From Candidatus Altarchaeum sp. (lineage in GTDB: Archaea; Altiarchaeota; Altiarchaeia; Altiarchaeales; Altiarchaeaceae), in the NCBI GenBank assembly GCA_018260615.1, contig JAGWDQ010000012.1, positions 1 to 14,764 of the forward strand: a DNA stretch of 14,764 nt, written 5' to 3'. Of the stretch, positions 4,671 to 13,664 are shown one piece after another. The notes beneath the pieces were generated by a model that was not told the origin of the DNA, ran no database searches, and worked only from the letters and a program-made list of their open reading frames with translations. Each line of letters opens with the position of its first letter. Position 1 is the stretch's first letter. The position numbers and the translations under genes were made by a program.

Positions 4671-4833
4671 TTATTCATAGTATTCATCTTTATGTATATT
4701 CTGAATTTTTTGAATATTATTTGCGTCATAATATGATACAGGTCCTTCATCTGATGCGTTAACTCCGTCAATAATTAAAACCGGTATCAAAACCCCGGGA
4801 TAAACTTCCTAAAATTTTAATTTTATTTTCCAT
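4671..4833 (-). pseudogene. Possible frameshifted small ORF (about 53 aa)
   Basis: An ATG at 4833 overlapping the end of the upstream CDS gives MENKIKIL. Removing one base joins it to the frame EVYPGVLIPVLIIDGVNASDEGPVSYYDANNIQKIQNIHKDEYYE* (TAA 4673-4671). The span is 163 nt, i.e. 54 codons plus 1. Confidence 0.25.
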
Positions 4834-6250
4834 GTTTCTCTTTTTTATATTTTCTGTACAATACATACAACAATCCGAAAACAATTATAATTAAAAGTAT
4901 AATGCCAATAATAGCGATTTGAGTATAATCCGGTTGTTGCGGTTGTTCCTGTTTTGTTTCCGTTAAATTTTCCTTTGCCTTTTTTTCAGCAGCAATTTTT
5001 GCTTCATTCTCTTCAGTCGCTTTCCTTTCTTTCATCTCTCCTTCATATGTTTTTAATGCAATAGTTACATCTTCTTCACCTGTCTGACATGAAAGTATGG
5101 ACTCTTTGTATTTTTCGTCAGCAAAATTTTTCTCAGCGGTTTTCAGCATATCATAAGCGGACTCGGCAAATACAGATGTCTTGTTTCCGTAAGGCAAAGA
5201 ACTTAAATTTAAAATTTCAGACCGTAATCTGTCAATACATGCAGACGCATTCGCCTTTAAATTTTCCGTAGTTTGCATTATTGCATTTTCTTTTTCCATT
5301 TCTGCTTTCTTTTTTGTTATGGTTTCATTTATATCTTTTAGCATAATAACACAGTCATTCGCATATCTTTCTGCCGCTATGCATCCTTTACTTGTCTCAT
5401 ATTTTCTTGCATAAGAAAGTTTTGTTTCAACATCACTGAAGTCGTAGTCAATTTTTTCCTTGCTTGCAATTGCTTTTAAAATTTTAAGCGCGCTTTCACA
5501 TTCCTCTATTTTTTTCTGTGTGGTTAAGTTGGCATTTAAAGGAACACCCGCAACAATATTTTTACCTTCATTGTGTGCATTCCAGCAGGTTATATTTATT
5601 CGTTTCGGAATATCATTTAAATGGACATCAATATAAAATTCCGATGATTTATATGCTTGTATCGGCGACGGAATAGTAAATTTTTCTTTTGATTCATAAC
5701 TCTCTTTATTTGCATAAATTTTTGTATAATAGCATGAAAGACTTTCTCTTCCGTTATTTGTTAATTTTCCAGTTACAATACCCTCTGGTTTTTCACATTC
5801 AATGTATGTTTTGTTTGAAATTTCAGCGGAAAAATTTAAGGGATAGCCAATAAATTTGACACTTGCAGACTTTGTTATATTCCATAAGTATGTTTGACCT
5901 GCACTATCGGTATAAAAACAATATAAATTATGCGAAAAATTTTTAGTTGTTGCCTCTCCATGAGAGGTTGTCGTATAAGTAAAATTTTTTTCATACTCTT
6001 CAAACTTGTTAGTTCTAAACGGCATTCCATCATCGTACCGGCACTCTATTACAAAGTTAGTCAGAGCAATTTTTAGACCTACTTTGTAGTCCGCTGTTTC
6101 ATCAACAAATTTTGTCTGGTTTTCAGGCAGCATTAAAAGCTGAACCTCATCTGTTTGCATTTCTTTTACCTGTTCTCCGTAAATTATTCCGAGCATTCCG
6201 ATAACTGCAATTGCAACAATTCCTACAAAAAATATACTTGTGTTTTTCAT
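4823..6250 (-). CDS. Exported, C-terminally membrane-anchored hypothetical protein (beta-rich N-half, helical C-half), 475 aa
   Basis: N-terminal hydrophobic segment SIFFVGIVAIAVIGMLGIIYG. C-terminal TM IAIIGIILLIIIVFGLLYVLY followed by basic tail RKYKKEKHGK and preceded by a Q/P linker. Ten Cys and several N-x-S/T sequons. Confidence 0.88.
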   Translation of the reverse strand: MKNTSIFFVGIVAIAVIGMLGIIYGEQVKEMQTDEVQLLMLPENQTKFVDETADYKVGLKIALTNFVIECRYDDGMPFRTNKFEEYEKNFTYTTTSHGEATTKNFSHNLYCFYTDSAGQTYLWNITKSASVKFIGYPLNFSAEISNKTYIECEKPEGIVTGKLTNNGRESLSCYYTKIYANKESYESKEKFTIPSPIQAYKSSEFYIDVHLNDIPKRINITCWNAHNEGKNIVAGVPLNANLTTQKKIEECESALKILKAIASKEKIDYDFSDVETKLSYARKYETSKGCIAAERYANDCVIMLKDINETITKKKAEMEKENAIMQTTENLKANASACIDRLRSEILNLSSLPYGNKTSVFAESAYDMLKTAEKNFADEKYKESILSCQTGEEDVTIALKTYEGEMKERKATEENEAKIAAEKKAKENLTETKQEQPQQPDYTQIAIIGIILLIIIVFGLLYVLYRKYKKEKHGK

Positions 6251-8321: not shown

Positions 8322-8798
8322 ATGATAAAAATAGGCATAATATCTGACACACACATACTCCGGGGGATGGAAAAAATTTCAAAATCAATTCTCAATGAAT
8401 TTTCAAATGTGGATAAAATTCTTCACGCGGGAGATTTTGTTTCAATTGATGTCTTAAACCATCTGCAGAACATCGCCCCGACAATTGGCGTTCGCGGAAA
8501 CATGGATCAATTTAATATACTGCCTGCTTATCAGGAACTCAAAATTGAGGGCTTAAAAATAGGGCTTATTCATAATGCGGGTTCTTATCGTGAAGACCCT
8601 GTCAAAAACCCGCTTAATCTGGCAAAATCCAAAGGTGTTGATGTTCTGGTTTATGGGCATACTCACACACGATTTATGAAAAAAGCAGGGGACATTTTAC
8701 TTTTGAATCCCGGGAGTCCGACCCTCGCGGACCAAAAAAGTTTTATGACTGCAAAAATCAATGGAAAAGACATATCTGTTGAGGTTTTTGAATTATAA
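8322..8798 (+). CDS. Metallophosphoesterase, YfcE/MJ0936 family, 158 aa
   Basis: Motifs IISDTH, HAGD, RGNMD, LIH, GHTH, NPGS. Confidence 0.93.
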   Translation: MIKIGIISDTHILRGMEKISKSILNEFSNVDKILHAGDFVSIDVLNHLQNIAPTIGVRGNMDQFNILPAYQELKIEGLKIGLIHNAGSYREDPVKNPLNLAKSKGVDVLVYGHTHTRFMKKAGDILLLNPGSPTLADQKSFMTAKINGKDISVEVFEL

Positions 8799-9743
8799 AA
8801 AGAAAATTTTATGACCAAACAACAGAGAAAGCACAAATAAAAGGAAAAAGAATATAAGTGTTGTTACCAGGACATTGCCGGATGCTATATCAGAATTTAA
8901 TTTATAATGAACTGCTAATATCATCGTCATAAGTCCGGACGGCATCAGGGATTGCAGCAATATTATATTTTTTTCCATAGGAGTTAAGGGAATATTTAAA
9001 AGTCCCATTAAGCAGATAATTAAAAAAGCAAAGGCGGGAATAGCCCCTAATTTAATAACCGAAGAGAGGACTGAAATTTTAATAAATTTAGAAATTTTTC
9101 CGATATCCAAATACATCCCAAGATAAAGCAGGGTAAAAAACAAACTCGTACTTCCAATCAGTTCAAATAAATTTACCGTATCAGCCATAATGCCTTCAAC
9201 ACCAACACCCCAAAAATTTCCAATAAGTATTCCAAATATAAACGCATATAAAGGCGGAAATTTGAAGAAATTGAGTAAAATATTAGATATGTTTGGCTTG
9301 TTTTTTCCGTAAATTCCTGCGGTAAATGTAACTATTGTTATTAAGCCGATGAACATTCCAAGGTCATAAAGCACGGCATAAAACAAGCCGGTTGAACCAA
9401 AGAAATAAAAAGATATGGGATAGCCCAAAAATCCCGTATTTGCATGTGCTGAAGTAATTATGAAACTGCCTGCGGACGGTTTGTCTAAATTTAAAAATTT
9501 TGATGCAAAAAACGCAACAAAAATTCCAAAAACCAAAATAACAAAAGCAATAAATGTCAGGATAAAATTTGATAAATGGACGGGATTTTTCAGGAATGTC
9601 GCCAAAACCAGCGCAGGAAGTGCAACATAAATAATAAAAATGCGGAGCACGCGCCGAATTGCATCCTCAAATTTTGTCCTCCTTAAAATTTGCCCGATTC
9701 CCAGCAACAATGCAAATATAATTATTGTTTCAAACAAAATCAT
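8793..9743 (-). CDS. AEC (auxin efflux carrier / membrane transport protein) family permease, 316 aa
   Basis: About 10 hydrophobic segments; YVALPALV, ANTGFLGYP, PPLYAFIFG and LMPSG...LAVHY motifs typical of AEC permeases. Overlaps the convergent phosphoesterase gene by 6 nt. Confidence 0.88.
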   Translation of the reverse strand: MILFETIIIFALLLGIGQILRRTKFEDAIRRVLRIFIIYVALPALVLATFLKNPVHLSNFILTFIAFVILVFGIFVAFFASKFLNLDKPSAGSFIITSAHANTGFLGYPISFYFFGSTGLFYAVLYDLGMFIGLITIVTFTAGIYGKNKPNISNILLNFFKFPPLYAFIFGILIGNFWGVGVEGIMADTVNLFELIGSTSLFFTLLYLGMYLDIGKISKFIKISVLSSVIKLGAIPAFAFLIICLMGLLNIPLTPMEKNIILLQSLMPSGLMTMILAVHYKLNSDIASGNVLVTTLIFFFLLFVLSLLFGHKIFFL

Positions 9744-9829
9744 TTAAAAATTCATTTAAAATTTTAAAAGTTTTATTATTAAGTATTTATCCTTGATTAT
9801 TTATCATTAAATCTATTATAAATTTTAAA
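9744..9829. promoter_or_regulatory. Short divergent promoter region between the AEC permease and the CBS protein
   Basis: 86-bp AT-rich gap between divergent ATGs, with several TATA-like stretches. Specific boxes cannot be assigned. Confidence 0.45.
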
Positions 9830-12800
9830 ATGGCAATCCTTGCAAAAGATATAATGACGCCAAATCCGAGCTCTTGTTATAGGTACATTTCTCTTGACAG
9901 AGTTATAGAAATTATGGAAAAAAAGGAGGATGGTAAGGTATCCTATATTGTCCTTACTGATGAGCATTCTGTTTTATTGGGGATTTCATCCAGATGGAAT
10001 ATAGCAAGATTTATCTTAAAATTTAACATCAGCGAAGAAAATTTAACAAATATTCCCATAAACAACATTATGCAGATAAATGTAATAAGTAAGGATGTTG
10101 AAACACCTTTTGAACAGGTGATTGAAAACGTAATAAGTACAAATTCAGAATGTATGATTTGCACTGAAACCAAACGGGGAGAAAACTTTGCATCTGTAAA
10201 AGGAATTATCTGTAAAAGAGATGTACTGGCAGGGATCAGCGATATTATATTGCATTCCAGGGACATTAAAAGGTATGCGGATGACATAATAGCGGAAGAC
10301 CTAATGAACACAAAAGTAAAAGATACTGGAATATGCTATAAATATGAAGATGTTATTGATGTAAAGAAAAGGATGGCTGAAAATAATATAAAACATGTAT
10401 GTGTTATTAATGAAATCAACGATAAACAAAAACTTATTAAAGTTATTTCTTATAAGGACTTAATAGATATAAAAACTTCAAATGCCATATCTGAAATAAA
10501 AACAAAAAGAGAAGATGAAATTTCAAAAAGAAAATTGGGGGACTTACAAAACAAAGAAAAATTTTCTCAATACAATGATAAGACCTTAATTGCCTGTTCC
10601 AAAAATACAAACTTATCAAAATTAATAGAATTGATGATGGTTTGTCATGTGGGGGTGATTCCGGTAATTGACGAGGATGATACCTTACTTGGAATAATTG
10701 GAAGGAAAGAAATTTTTGAGGCGTTTCTTTTTGTATTAGATGATTGTAAAAGAAATAATATTGATTTTGATGAACTTGTTTTGCATACCCAAAAATTGAC
10801 AGAAATACCTGAAGCACAACCCTTGCAAACAAATACAAATAGTGATACGAATCTCAACAAAATAATGATTCCGAGATTTGCGATTGATGTTATTTCACCA
10901 ATGCAAAGACAAGATAGAGGACAGGAAAATGGCAAAGTTATATGTTGCGGCACAAATGAAAAAGTAAACGATGTCGGATTAAGTATGAAAAATAACAACA
11001 TATCTCATGTTGTAATAACCAGCGACGGAACAGATAATGGCGCACTGCTCGGCATAATTTCAGCAAGAGACATAACAATTTACCGGCGAATAATGGATGC
11101 ATCCGGAGCCAACATTGATGACACACCTATTCGTGATTTCGCAAATCCTTTATGCCCCTCTGTAATTTACTGCTCAAAATACACATCTTTTCCGGAAATT
11201 GTTGAAACAATGGTTAAAAATAACATCGGAAGTATGATTGTTATGGGCAAAGAAAATATCAATGTAGAAGAAGAAACAAATAATATGAAGGGGAATTTAA
11301 ATCAGGCCGAAGAAGATATGAGATGCGAAATAGAAAATGAGATACCCGGATTAAAACACAAATCAAAATTTTTTGAAACAATTGGAGAAGAATATATAAG
11401 AATGATTACAAACATAACTAATTCAAATGCTGATGTTACAAAGATAAGCACCGGCATTATGAACATTCTTAAAACATACCTGTCATTAACAGGATTGAAA
11501 CTAAATGAAGAAATAAATAAAGAAATAACTGAAAAATTTAAAAATCGCATAGAAAAAGAAATATCCTTACTTCTATCAAAAATTCCGGAAGAAAAATTCA
11601 GTTCATCAAAGGATATGGAAATACAGATTGAAAAATTAATAAGTGATTTGAAAAAATATATAGGTGCGATGGGAATTACAAAACAAAAAGAGCAGTCAGA
11701 AGTAATTGAAAGAATAATGGATGATGAAAAAAATGCGATTATGGCTGCGTTTGAAGGAGATATACCTAAAACATGCTATGATTGTGATGGTCTAATAATA
11801 AAACTAAAAGAGGGAATACACTTAAAGGACTATTTTATCCATGTTCTAAAGTGGAAGATAAACAACATCCTGCTTAATATTGCTAAAATGCAATTTGAAA
11901 GCAAAAATGTTGAGGACGAAATCAATTCCATAAATAATGAGTTGGCAAAAATTTTGGCAAAGATAAACATGCAGGAAGATAAGTTAGAAAATTGTAAAAC
12001 AATAATGGCAAAGACATTGTGGATAATTGCGGACTCGCACAAAAAGGTTGCTAATCTAAAGAGTATAAGCGATAAATTTGCTGCTATTCTAAATATATAT
12101 ATTGAGAGTGCATACAGTCAGGATTGCAGGGGGAAAATTATGGAGGTCTGGAATAAAAAAGCAAAAAATGTAAGTGAAAATTTTAGATACGGATTATATA
12201 AAATTATCAGGGGAAAAATTGTGGGTTTTATATCCAGAAGCGATGTATTGCGGGGAATAAAAACAACTCTTTCGTTTTTACACTTGCCTTTTATTGAAAA
12301 TGAAATGACTAAAAAAGATATTGCAAAAATTTGCGCGAAAGCAGAAGATATTATTATGAATAAAAATGTCAAAGATGTTAAGACATGCAACGCAACAGAC
12401 AAAATTATTAAAGTGGATGGAAAAATGTGCAAGTTCCATATAGGGCATATCTGTGTTGTCCATAATGAAAATGAACTGATAGGCATTGCTTCTTATGACG
12501 ATTTTGTTCCGACAATAATTTGTCCTGCTGCTGTTTTGTCTTCATCAACTATGGAAAAAACAATGAGTAAAAATAGCGAACTTTTTGTATGTGATAAAGA
12601 TACCTTGTTAGAGGACTTGATAGAAATTATAGTGGTGAATAAAATAGGAGCAATTCCCGTGGTTGAAAAAAAAGTAAATGATGGATTTTACAGACATCAT
12701 GAAAATGTCTTTGACGAACTTATAAAATCAATATCGGAGAAAAAGAGAAGTGTATCTTTTATTCCTGTTATTGGAAATAAAAATATGGATGTTAACAAAG

Positions 12801-13204
12801 GTATTGATTTTTTAAACCCTGCACAAAATTTGCAAAGTCAAAATTATACGAACACTTTACTAAAAGATATGTATGAAGGCAGGATAACCAAAATCCTTTT
12901 ATTAAAACAAATCAGTGATACCAAAACAAGTATATTTGCAACAGGGATAAATAAAGAATACAATAGAAAATTTAAGGAAGGACTAAAAAATAAGAAATTG
13001 GTAGAGGTAAAACAACAGTTTAGAAAATTTAATGAAATGCTTAAATATATCAGTATAGACAGAAGAATCAGCGGCATAATAATAGAAAATGAAGATGAGG
13101 ATATGTTTAAATACAGGTATTTGCTCAAAGGAATTATATGTAAAAAGGAACTTTTTGAGTCCGGCATGAATGTAATAAAAATAATTGATAATTTAACTAC
13201 ATAA
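9830..13204 (+). CDS. Large multi-CBS-domain protein (8 CBS domains / 4 Bateman modules) with two large internal insertions, 1124 aa
   Basis: Repeated CBS motifs, e.g. AKDIMT, AEDLMN, VGVIPVIDEDDTLLGIIGRKEI, LLGIISARDI, GKIVGFISRSDV, LIGIASYDD, GAIPVVE, LKGIICKKEL. No transmembrane or recognisable enzymatic domain. Confidence 0.9.
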   Translation: MAILAKDIMTPNPSSCYRYISLDRVIEIMEKKEDGKVSYIVLTDEHSVLLGISSRWNIARFILKFNISEENLTNIPINNIMQINVISKDVETPFEQVIENVISTNSECMICTETKRGENFASVKGIICKRDVLAGISDIILHSRDIKRYADDIIAEDLMNTKVKDTGICYKYEDVIDVKKRMAENNIKHVCVINEINDKQKLIKVISYKDLIDIKTSNAISEIKTKREDEISKRKLGDLQNKEKFSQYNDKTLIACSKNTNLSKLIELMMVCHVGVIPVIDEDDTLLGIIGRKEIFEAFLFVLDDCKRNNIDFDELVLHTQKLTEIPEAQPLQTNTNSDTNLNKIMIPRFAIDVISPMQRQDRGQENGKVICCGTNEKVNDVGLSMKNNNISHVVITSDGTDNGALLGIISARDITIYRRIMDASGANIDDTPIRDFANPLCPSVIYCSKYTSFPEIVETMVKNNIGSMIVMGKENINVEEETNNMKGNLNQAEEDMRCEIENEIPGLKHKSKFFETIGEEYIRMITNITNSNADVTKISTGIMNILKTYLSLTGLKLNEEINKEITEKFKNRIEKEISLLLSKIPEEKFSSSKDMEIQIEKLISDLKKYIGAMGITKQKEQSEVIERIMDDEKNAIMAAFEGDIPKTCYDCDGLIIKLKEGIHLKDYFIHVLKWKINNILLNIAKMQFESKNVEDEINSINNELAKILAKINMQEDKLENCKTIMAKTLWIIADSHKKVANLKSISDKFAAILNIYIESAYSQDCRGKIMEVWNKKAKNVSENFRYGLYKIIRGKIVGFISRSDVLRGIKTTLSFLHLPFIENEMTKKDIAKICAKAEDIIMNKNVKDVKTCNATDKIIKVDGKMCKFHIGHICVVHNENELIGIASYDDFVPTIICPAAVLSSSTMEKTMSKNSELFVCDKDTLLEDLIEIIVVNKIGAIPVVEKKVNDGFYRHHENVFDELIKSISEKKRSVSFIPVIGNKNMDVNKGIDFLNPAQNLQSQNYTNTLLKDMYEGRITKILLLKQISDTKTSIFATGINKEYNRKFKEGLKNKKLVEVKQQFRKFNEMLKYISIDRRISGIIIENEDEDMFKYRYLLKGIICKKELFESGMNVIKIIDNLTT

Positions 13205-13214
13205 ATAATTTAAA

Positions 13215-13664
13215 ATGAGTGAAATTTTATCAGAGGGAAAACTTTTATTAACTGAATACAAAGGAAGTGTTTCAAATATCCCCGAAAAATTTAAAAGGGC
13301 TGAAGAAAAAGGAAAAATAATTTACATCTCCCTAAACGGAAAACATATTCCAAAAACTAATTCTGACATTGTTTTGAGCGAGGTACCTGAATTTCATACT
13401 CAAAAAGGGATAGAAATTTTACCGCACTTGTTGTTTGAAATAATCAGAGATACAATTGCATCGTATGAGCATAATAATATAAGCGGCATAATAATTGAAA
13501 TTGACGAAATATTTGAAAAATTTAGAGATAAATCCAAAATTTCCGACTTTCTTTCTGCGTTGAAATCCGTGTTGCATATCTCAAATATCACAGTAGTTAT
13601 GCTTACAAAATCATCGGACGATTTGCTTAAAAAGTATGGTCTAAATAAGAATTTATTTGATTAG
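13215..13664 (+). CDS. Small cytoplasmic protein, probably DUF835 / degenerate KaiC-RecA-like fold, 149 aa
   Basis: Alternating beta/alpha pattern with IIYIS strand, Walker-B-like strand ISGIIIEIDE, helix KISDFLSALKSVL and terminal strand ITVVMLT. No Walker A motif. Starts 10 nt after the CBS gene stop. Confidence 0.65.
   Translation: MSEILSEGKLLLTEYKGSVSNIPEKFKRAEEKGKIIYISLNGKHIPKTNSDIVLSEVPEFHTQKGIEILPHLLFEIIRDTIASYEHNNISGIIIEIDEIFEKFRDKSKISDFLSALKSVLHISNITVVMLTKSSDDLLKKYGLNKNLFD

Follow-up and report, generated by a model that had tools for sequence, protein, structure and literature searches.

A single open reading frame (ORF) on the plus strand, positions 9830-13204, of a 14,764 nucleotide (nt) stretch of Candidatus Altarchaeum sp. 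DNA (contig JAGWDQ010000012.1; the window) encodes P0001, a multi-CBS protein of 1124 residues in which eight CBS repeats can be traced. The sixth of these, CBS6, is, as read from its profile matches, a complete CBS domain with a predicted all-helical domain of some 320 residues, of no known family, nested in its beta2-beta3 hairpin. CBS8 probably has an alpha/beta stretch of about 150 residues at the same point, with the final 27 residues of the protein completing the domain. On its sequence, the layout of P0001 is unusual in having a foreign domain inside a CBS repeat, rather than after or between repeats. The reading favoured here, with a probability of about 0.5, is that P0001 is a cytoplasmic, lineage-restricted regulator with four Bateman modules (CBS1+2, 3+4, 5+6, and 7+8) and that the nested domain is its output.

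The two halves of CBS6 are exactly complementary in the coordinates of the Pfam CBS profile, where residues 443-475 match positions 7-39 and residues 795-810 match positions 40-55. Joining residues 434-475 to 794-815 gives one unbroken match to positions 7-55 with a score of 39.7 bits. This exceeds every intact repeat of P0001 (28 to 32.5 bits each when scanned alone), the separate halves scoring 17.7 and 14.6 bits. With a CBS hidden Markov model (HMM) built from twelve CBS-pair proteins of this genome, the spliced CBS6 scores 37.6 bits, compared with 19.2 and 11.4 for the halves. In hhalign the halves fall on template columns 7-40 and 41-57, with a score of 58.1 spliced versus 32.3, and no reliable alignment to the CBS profile was found for the residues after 475 and before 794. 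The C half is the most conserved piece of the protein, being 84% identical in the orthologue P0002, and the N half is 65% identical. The break had been placed here in the initial annotation, and these profile matches indicate that the split of CBS6 by a nested domain is very probably real.

A Pfam scan of the whole of P0001 identifies CBS (PF00571) only, at 140.5 bits in 7 stretches (cut-off 24 bits), and an NCBIfam scan returns nothing but far sub-threshold matches to CBS-bearing families. Scanned piecewise, five whole repeats are located by Pfam, at residues 5-63, 156-213, 250-299, 369-416, and 840-893, along with the N-terminal halves of two more, at 443-475 (positions 7-39 out of 57) and 916-946 (positions 7-37). 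The divergent CBS2 (approximately 77-138) is missed by Pfam and is aligned to the CBS profile by hhalign over template columns 2-58. Pfam and hhalign together therefore trace the eight repeats that had been proposed for this frame. The features, all on the plus strand, are as follows.

9744..9829, plus: presumed promoter in the AT-rich intergenic region upstream of P0001, shared with the divergent transporter gene
9830..13204, plus: P0001 gene, 1124-residue multi-CBS protein (ORF, Pfam, copies in other assemblies)
9842..10018, plus: CBS1, residues 5-63 (Pfam, 32.5 bits)
10058..10243, plus: CBS2, residues ~77-138, divergent (hhalign E-value 1.2e-3; no Pfam match alone)
10295..10468, plus: CBS3, residues 156-213 (Pfam)
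10577..10726, plus: CBS4, residues 250-299 (Pfam)
10934..11077, plus: CBS5, residues 369-416, with a canonical G-I-I-S-x-x-D (Pfam; motif read from the translation)
11156..11254, plus: CBS6 N half, residues 443-475, beta1-alpha1-beta2 (Pfam positions 7-39; hhalign 7-40)
11255..12211, plus: nested domain 1, residues 476-794, ~12 predicted helices, orphan (low-confidence model; no family match)
12212..12274, plus: CBS6 C half, residues 795-815, beta3-alpha2, with G-F-I-S-R-S-D (Pfam positions 40-55; hhalign 41-57)
12347..12508, plus: CBS7, residues 840-893 (Pfam; predicted local distance difference test (pLDDT) 75-92; VIA Z 13-14 to CBS pairs)
12575..12667, plus: CBS8 N half, residues 916-946 (Pfam positions 7-37; Bateman model as far as beta2)
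12668..13120, plus: C-terminal non-CBS stretch, residues 947-1097, CBS8 insert or part of a contiguous tail (no family match)
13121..13201, plus: candidate beta3-alpha2, residues 1098-1124, K-G-I-I-C-K-K-E-L-F, possible CBS8 C half (small score gains)
13215..13664, plus: P0003, 149-residue orphan gene, starting 10 nt after the P0001 stop (conserved beside the orthologue)

CBS domains pair to form Bateman modules, and the adenosyl ligands known for such modules are adenosine mono-, di-, and triphosphate (AMP, ADP, and ATP), S-adenosylmethionine (SAM), cyclic di-AMP (c-di-AMP), or similar. The ribose-phosphate motif of the CBS domain is G-h-h-S/T-x-x-D/N, at beta3-alpha2. This motif is intact in CBS5, CBS6, and CBS7 of both P0001 and P0002; it is degenerate in CBS2, in CBS4, and at residue 1101, the CBS8 motif being likewise degenerate. 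CBS7 and the N half of CBS8 were modelled by AlphaFold as a Bateman pair (pLDDT 72-92), and over model residues 6-120 this matches solved CBS pairs with Z 13-14 and a root mean square deviation (rmsd) of about 2 angstroms.

Nested domain 1 appears in the full-length AlphaFold model as approximately 12 helices of 17 to 31 residues, with the highest, yet still low, confidence of that failed model (pLDDT 45-65 for residues 476-794). It is rich in I, K, E, and N and has no hydrophobic span, and no clear internal repeat was found in it (best window pair z 3.9). Between P0001 and P0002 it is 40% identical, compared with 56-72% for the CBS repeats and 29-39% for the inter-domain linkers. A match to the domain was sought without success in Pfam, NCBIfam, PADLOC, the PDB sequences, and the ESM Atlas features, and by tblastn in phage and plasmid collections. 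A phmmer search with residues 474-795 against 1.84 billion representatives also returned 0 matches, a blank that is weaker because P0001 itself and P0002 were not returned either, their cluster seemingly being absent from that set. Six-frame searches of the genomes of the phylum with nested domain 1, residues 947-1124, and P0003 gave chance-level matches only. These searches agree with the earlier view that P0001 has no recognisable effector. A CxxC motif within the domain (C649, C652) was considered as a feature and dropped, as it is not conserved in P0002.

The sole full-length homologue of P0001 among 5.8 billion protein clusters is P0002, a protein of 1068 residues from a different metagenome. 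It is 54% identical, collinear from end to end, and has both of the non-CBS stretches. A search for shorter proteins matching residues 830-1124 found only P0006. Two metagenome scans and one genome scan identified no relatives of P0001, the genome scan giving two unrelated weak CBS matches. The genome collection covers the host phylum with only 61 species representatives; the nested stretches and P0003 were found neither in three other genomes of the genus (65-87% complete) nor in the other 57 genomes of the phylum. The family is thus lineage-restricted, with two to three sequences. The architecture was called unusual in the initial annotation, and this stands in so far as the layout is conserved in one full-length orthologue and no characterised homologues with the layout were found. 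The further suggestion of a signalling system goes too far for two to three sequences from a single lineage.

The host, an uncultured archaeon, is represented by a metagenome-assembled genome (MAG) that spans 2.2 Mb over 148 contigs, is 87% complete, and carries archaeal 16S and 23S ribosomal RNA. There are 53 CBS matches in this genome, including tandem arrays of CBS pairs and several proteins with four CBS. CBS-pair genes are present three in tandem on contig C98 and several on C77, and CBS matches are also located on C114, C147, and C130 (loci L017-L046). Among the loci examined, one (L002:445-2368) encodes a protein of 544 residues with two C-terminal CBS repeats preceded by approximately 330 N-terminal residues without assignment. 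It is followed by an overlapping frame of 110 residues with a CBS match to positions 1-42 only, which may be a frameshifted repeat.

The N half of CBS8 is canonical and its profile match stops at Pfam position 37, residue 946. The profile matches of CBS6 and CBS8 stop at the same position, so both breaks lie in the beta2-beta3 turn. Residues 947-1097 are made up of a linker-like part (948-975), a helix, long hairpin, and helix (989-1052), and a helix-strand part (1058-1087). Splicing the CBS8 N half to the segment from 1098 raises the Pfam score by 7.6 bits, and residues 1098-1124 are 67% identical in P0002. The stretch directly after CBS8 beta2, residues 948-975, is conserved at the level of a linker, with 29% identity between P0001 and P0002 and a 2-residue insertion or deletion. 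The even number of repeats that results if CBS8 is split fits the CBS pairing rule. For the non-CBS stretch of this C-terminal region, no match was found in Pfam, NCBIfam, PADLOC, the ESM Atlas features, the PDB sequences, or phage and plasmid collections.

Docking of fragments with ESMFold2 placed residues 1090-1124 against 830-949, with 950-985 present as a competitor, at a score of 0.42, compared with 0.02 for the best control. Contact agreement between runs was at least 75% and the pLDDT of the partner was at least 53. This was graded as weak support. Among solved complexes, 58 of 80 attained this mark, as did 2 of 110 mismatched pairs, and scores of 0.60 or less were seen for only 7 of the 80 solved complexes plus both of the mismatches that passed. 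Since CBS folds are well represented among solved structures, the pass may only show likeness to these.

In a second AlphaFold job, covering residues 830-1124, a 20-row alignment was used in which the CBS-pair homologues are cut before beta3 of the second repeat, so that they could not dictate how CBS8 is closed. Residues 952-986 are below pLDDT 50 in this model and 989-1051 form a helix, long hairpin, and helix at pLDDT 65-73. The best Foldseek matches to the model are AcuB structures (E-value 9.5e-9), a hint that residues 976-1052 may be an ACT-like beta-alpha-beta-beta-alpha unit. In the Atlas fold search the CBS pair alone was matched. With hhalign in greedy mode, full-length contiguous alignments were obtained for all four half-domains, the extra columns having zero confidence and not being counted. 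On balance, the chances that CBS8 is split with residues 1098-1124 as its C half are close to even. Of the earlier claim that two CBS domains are split at the same loop, the part concerning CBS6 is firm, as is the position of both breaks; the split of CBS8, and its resumption at 1098 in particular, did not become firm.

Two further ideas about this region were discarded. A DUF835 (PF05763) or KaiC-like identity for the second insert and P0003 found no Pfam match at E-values up to 10, and PF05763 was not found in the host genome. Homology between the second insert and P0003 through an I-S-G-I-I-I-E motif amounted to a BLASTP E-value of 0.13 over 17 residues and 11 columns in hhalign (E-value 0.026).

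A number of observations weigh against the reading of P0001 as a four-module regulator with a split CBS8. The full-length AlphaFold model, from a 2-row alignment, failed, with a mean pLDDT of 33.6 and the repeats other than CBS7 and CBS8 not reliably modelled, so that the reassembly of CBS6 is argued from sequence profiles only. When every 26-mer of P0001 was appended to each N half, the splice score mainly reflected how canonical the C half is, and the highly canonical CBS6 C half lifts the score of whichever N half it is joined to. The family is absent from the three incomplete genomes of the same genus and is therefore dispensable. At the C-terminus, residues 1089-1124 were left undocked at pLDDT 25-34, so that AlphaFold, confident for CBS7 and the CBS8 N half, gives no answer as to what closes CBS8. 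The gain from the 1098 segment is only 3 bits in the HMM of this genome and 2.3 in hhalign, and a segment from 1078 is no worse a complement to the CBS8 N half. Around residue 1080, I-S-G-I-I-I-E-N resembles a beta2 strand of its own (hhalign E-value 0.01). Residues 1076-1093 can be seen as a beta2-like strand leading into a long hairpin; CBS2 shows the same arrangement and shares the K-G-I-I-C-K motif. Past residue 905 the secondary structure is readable as three consecutive beta-alpha-beta-beta-alpha units. Finally, L016, a contig from another data set, has a counterpart of approximately 982-1124 that is preceded by in-frame stops and lacks the CBS8 N half.

These C-terminal features can also be read with only CBS6 split and the last 180 or so residues as a contiguous tail, giving 9-10 repeat units and no second insertion. 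CBS8 would then be closed by a degenerate beta3-alpha2 (approximately 950-972) and followed by two more beta-alpha-beta-beta-alpha units, residues 976-1055 being ACT-like or a degenerate CBS and residues 1056-1124 a degenerate CBS whose hairpin is long, as it is in CBS2. This is the most credible alternative, although it is the less probable account. In its favour, CBS8 beta2 is followed at once in the AlphaFold model by a strand (952-953) and a helix (960-970), hhalign places 1076-1093 on CBS columns 27-44 (in greedy mode 1069-1112 on 20-57), and the hairpin loop before K-G-I-I-C-K is of similar length in CBS2. AcuB, the best Foldseek match over 210-230 columns, is itself a Bateman module with a C-terminal ACT domain, and what L016 retains has the size of a stand-alone CBS pair. 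However, the AcuB alignments have an rmsd of about 17 angstroms, the sequence alignments are weak (pairwise E-values 0.01-0.13) with reliable columns for one strand only, and Pfam is blank for residues 1010-1124 and 1070-1124. The poor conservation of 948-975 is also unlike that of all other C halves of P0001. L016 is a 1584 base pair contig (Logan run ERR14788036), of which nt 1-469 encode a counterpart 66% identical to the C-terminal residues only. Its in-frame stops, at nt 17-31, are right before the first homologous codon and the first canonical start is 31 codons later, so that the frame may be a truncated remnant. Those 31 codons are under purifying selection, with nonsynonymous divergence (dN) of 0.25-0.30 and synonymous divergence (dS) saturated. 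L016 could be a copy truncated in recent times, an artefact of the contig end, or a stand-alone module that starts in an unusual way. Of these only the stand-alone module bears on the question of the split, and it would favour a contiguous tail.

It is also conceivable, but quite unlikely, that the half-motifs are relics, P0001 being a fast-evolving orphan in which decayed CBS repeats have been overwritten by helical filler and which serves as a structural or oligomerising scaffold without ligand-coupled output. The family is tiny and patchy, the ligand motifs of CBS2, CBS4, and CBS8 are degenerate, nested domain 1 is the least conserved structured part of the protein, and one assembly has a deleted, split copy. 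Against decay, the CBS6 halves are among the best conserved segments and together make the best CBS score in P0001, while canonical motifs are kept in CBS5, 6, and 7 of both orthologues at 54% overall identity. Comparison of the C-terminal part with L016 gives saturated dS while dN is 0.2-0.3. The deleted copy (GCA_002841095.1, L050:2562-5760) lacks nt ~233-303 and ~763-846 of the P0001 gene and is called as ORFs of 237 and 802 residues; it may result from faulty assembly or be a genuine deletion variant. That two-ORF copy, and the division of the source MAG into many contigs, might also suggest that the giant ORF was created by assembly or gene calling through the fusion of separate genes. 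This is extremely improbable, as the two internal deletions account for the two ORFs, P0002 from a different sample is collinear throughout, and the same 3375 nt frame is kept in four other, independent public assemblies at 98.7% nucleotide identity, with the same neighbourhood and the small P0003 gene directly after it. Given these copies and the collinear orthologue, the P0001 gene is real and not an assembly artefact.

If P0001 is a regulator with a nested output, adenosyl ligands (AMP, ADP, ATP, SAM, c-di-AMP, or similar) would bind in the clefts of modules 3 and 4. Occupancy would be expected to reposition the domain nested in CBS6, because the strand bearing the CBS6 motif starts at the junction with the insert. 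The nested domain would then act as output, through binding to another protein or through self-association. This mechanism is inferred from the established behaviour of Bateman modules and from AcuB, whose Bateman sensor controls an accessory, AcuC-binding ACT domain (PMC13121692). Archaeal proteins made of CBS repeats alone work by binding other macromolecules (PMC11705074). Recent studies show HhpR to target transcription and HibA/AHA to target ribosomes, so that protein binding is the likeliest kind of output. A sensor with a nested output seems a reasonable idea.

P0003 is the leading candidate partner of P0001 and, if co-transcribed with it as this reading supposes, would be the leading candidate target of the nested domain. 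The homologue of P0003 (49% identity, E-value 7e-22) begins 1 nt after the P0002 gene, so that the pair is conserved across the only divergence available. No match to P0003 was found in Pfam, the PDB sequences, or PADLOC and no homologue elsewhere in the phylum, and the search for homologues returned a 97% allele only. In L016 the P0003 gene is missing and, as in the window, a convergent malic-enzyme gene comes next, right after the retained frame. A more ambitious version, in which two hairpin-nested domains, instead of one fused at an end, relay ligand binding, the all-helical domain is a new fold, and P0003 is the regulated target, would make the pair an undescribed two-gene device, and this is doubtful.

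By membership P0001 is a CBS/Bateman protein and not one of the AcuB, CBS-pyrophosphatase, or HhpR families. It resembles MJ1225 (PDB 3kh5) and HhpR, the four-CBS proteins of AMPK-gamma type, in having tandem CBS repeats without an enzymatic domain. MJ1225 is its best PDB sequence match, with an E-value of 4.3e-8 over residues 180-306, and the NCBIfam match to HhpR is weak and far below the cut-off (16 versus 520 bits). P0001 differs from both in having twice the repeats per chain and approximately 470 non-CBS residues nested in or appended to repeats 6 and 8.

In its possible working, P0001 may be closest to AcuB-type proteins and to the CBS-DRTGG-CBS insert. AcuB (PDB 9s4v and others) similarly joins a Bateman sensor to a small accessory domain that contacts a partner (PMC13121692), with the difference that its ACT domain follows a complete Bateman module, whereas in P0001 the foreign domain is inside a CBS repeat. 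Pfam identifies no ACT domain in P0001, and the resemblance is structural only and local beyond the CBS pair. No acuA or acuC is found near P0001, where the neighbours are a transporter, an orphan gene, and a malic enzyme. DRTGG lies between two CBS domains and not inside one. The regulatory insert of the CBS-pyrophosphatases (CBS-DRTGG-CBS; PDB 3l31 and 3l2b) is otherwise alike in placing a foreign domain inside a Bateman module. The modelled CBS pair of P0001 aligns to residues 66-289 of the 3l31/3l2b chains with only 111 aligned positions, and Pfam finds neither DRTGG nor DHH in P0001.

Small loop expansions are known in the beta2-beta3 hairpin, so that this hairpin tolerates insertion. A CBS-pair protein of the same genome (locus L028) has about 10 extra residues there. 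The loop of human cystathionine beta-synthase comprising residues 516-525 presumably sits in the same hairpin. Its deletion is recorded in the title of PDB entry 4uuu. These loops are of about 10 residues, whereas the site in P0001 holds what appears to be a folded domain of approximately 320. No description of a CBS domain interrupted by a nested domain was found in the literature, the coverage of which was incomplete, so that novelty is unproven.

Upstream of P0001 is a divergent gene for an auxin-efflux-type transporter (8793-9743, minus strand). At the other end, the last 38 nt of the P0003 gene (13627-13664) are shared with the end of the convergent malic-enzyme gene. Elsewhere in the window (4823-6250, minus strand) there is a protein of 475 residues, without a match in Pfam or NCBIfam, whose gene diverges from a transglutaminase-like one. 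On a longer contig of the same lineage (L047:16875-18569), approximately 7 kb past the end of the window, is a GmrSD-type gene (PF03235 and PF07510, type IV restriction-like defence).

CBS pairs are among the most widespread of ligand sensors, and in the cases described they work on terminally attached domains or separate partners. The weight of the present case is limited by the small family, with two to three members, all from uncultured archaea, nested domains without recognisable function, and a second split that is unproven. If the reading is true, a domain of approximately 320 residues that emerges from a hairpin beside the ligand strand would represent a different coupling of sensing to output, and the hairpin-nested domain would be a natural template for engineering ligand-controlled domains.

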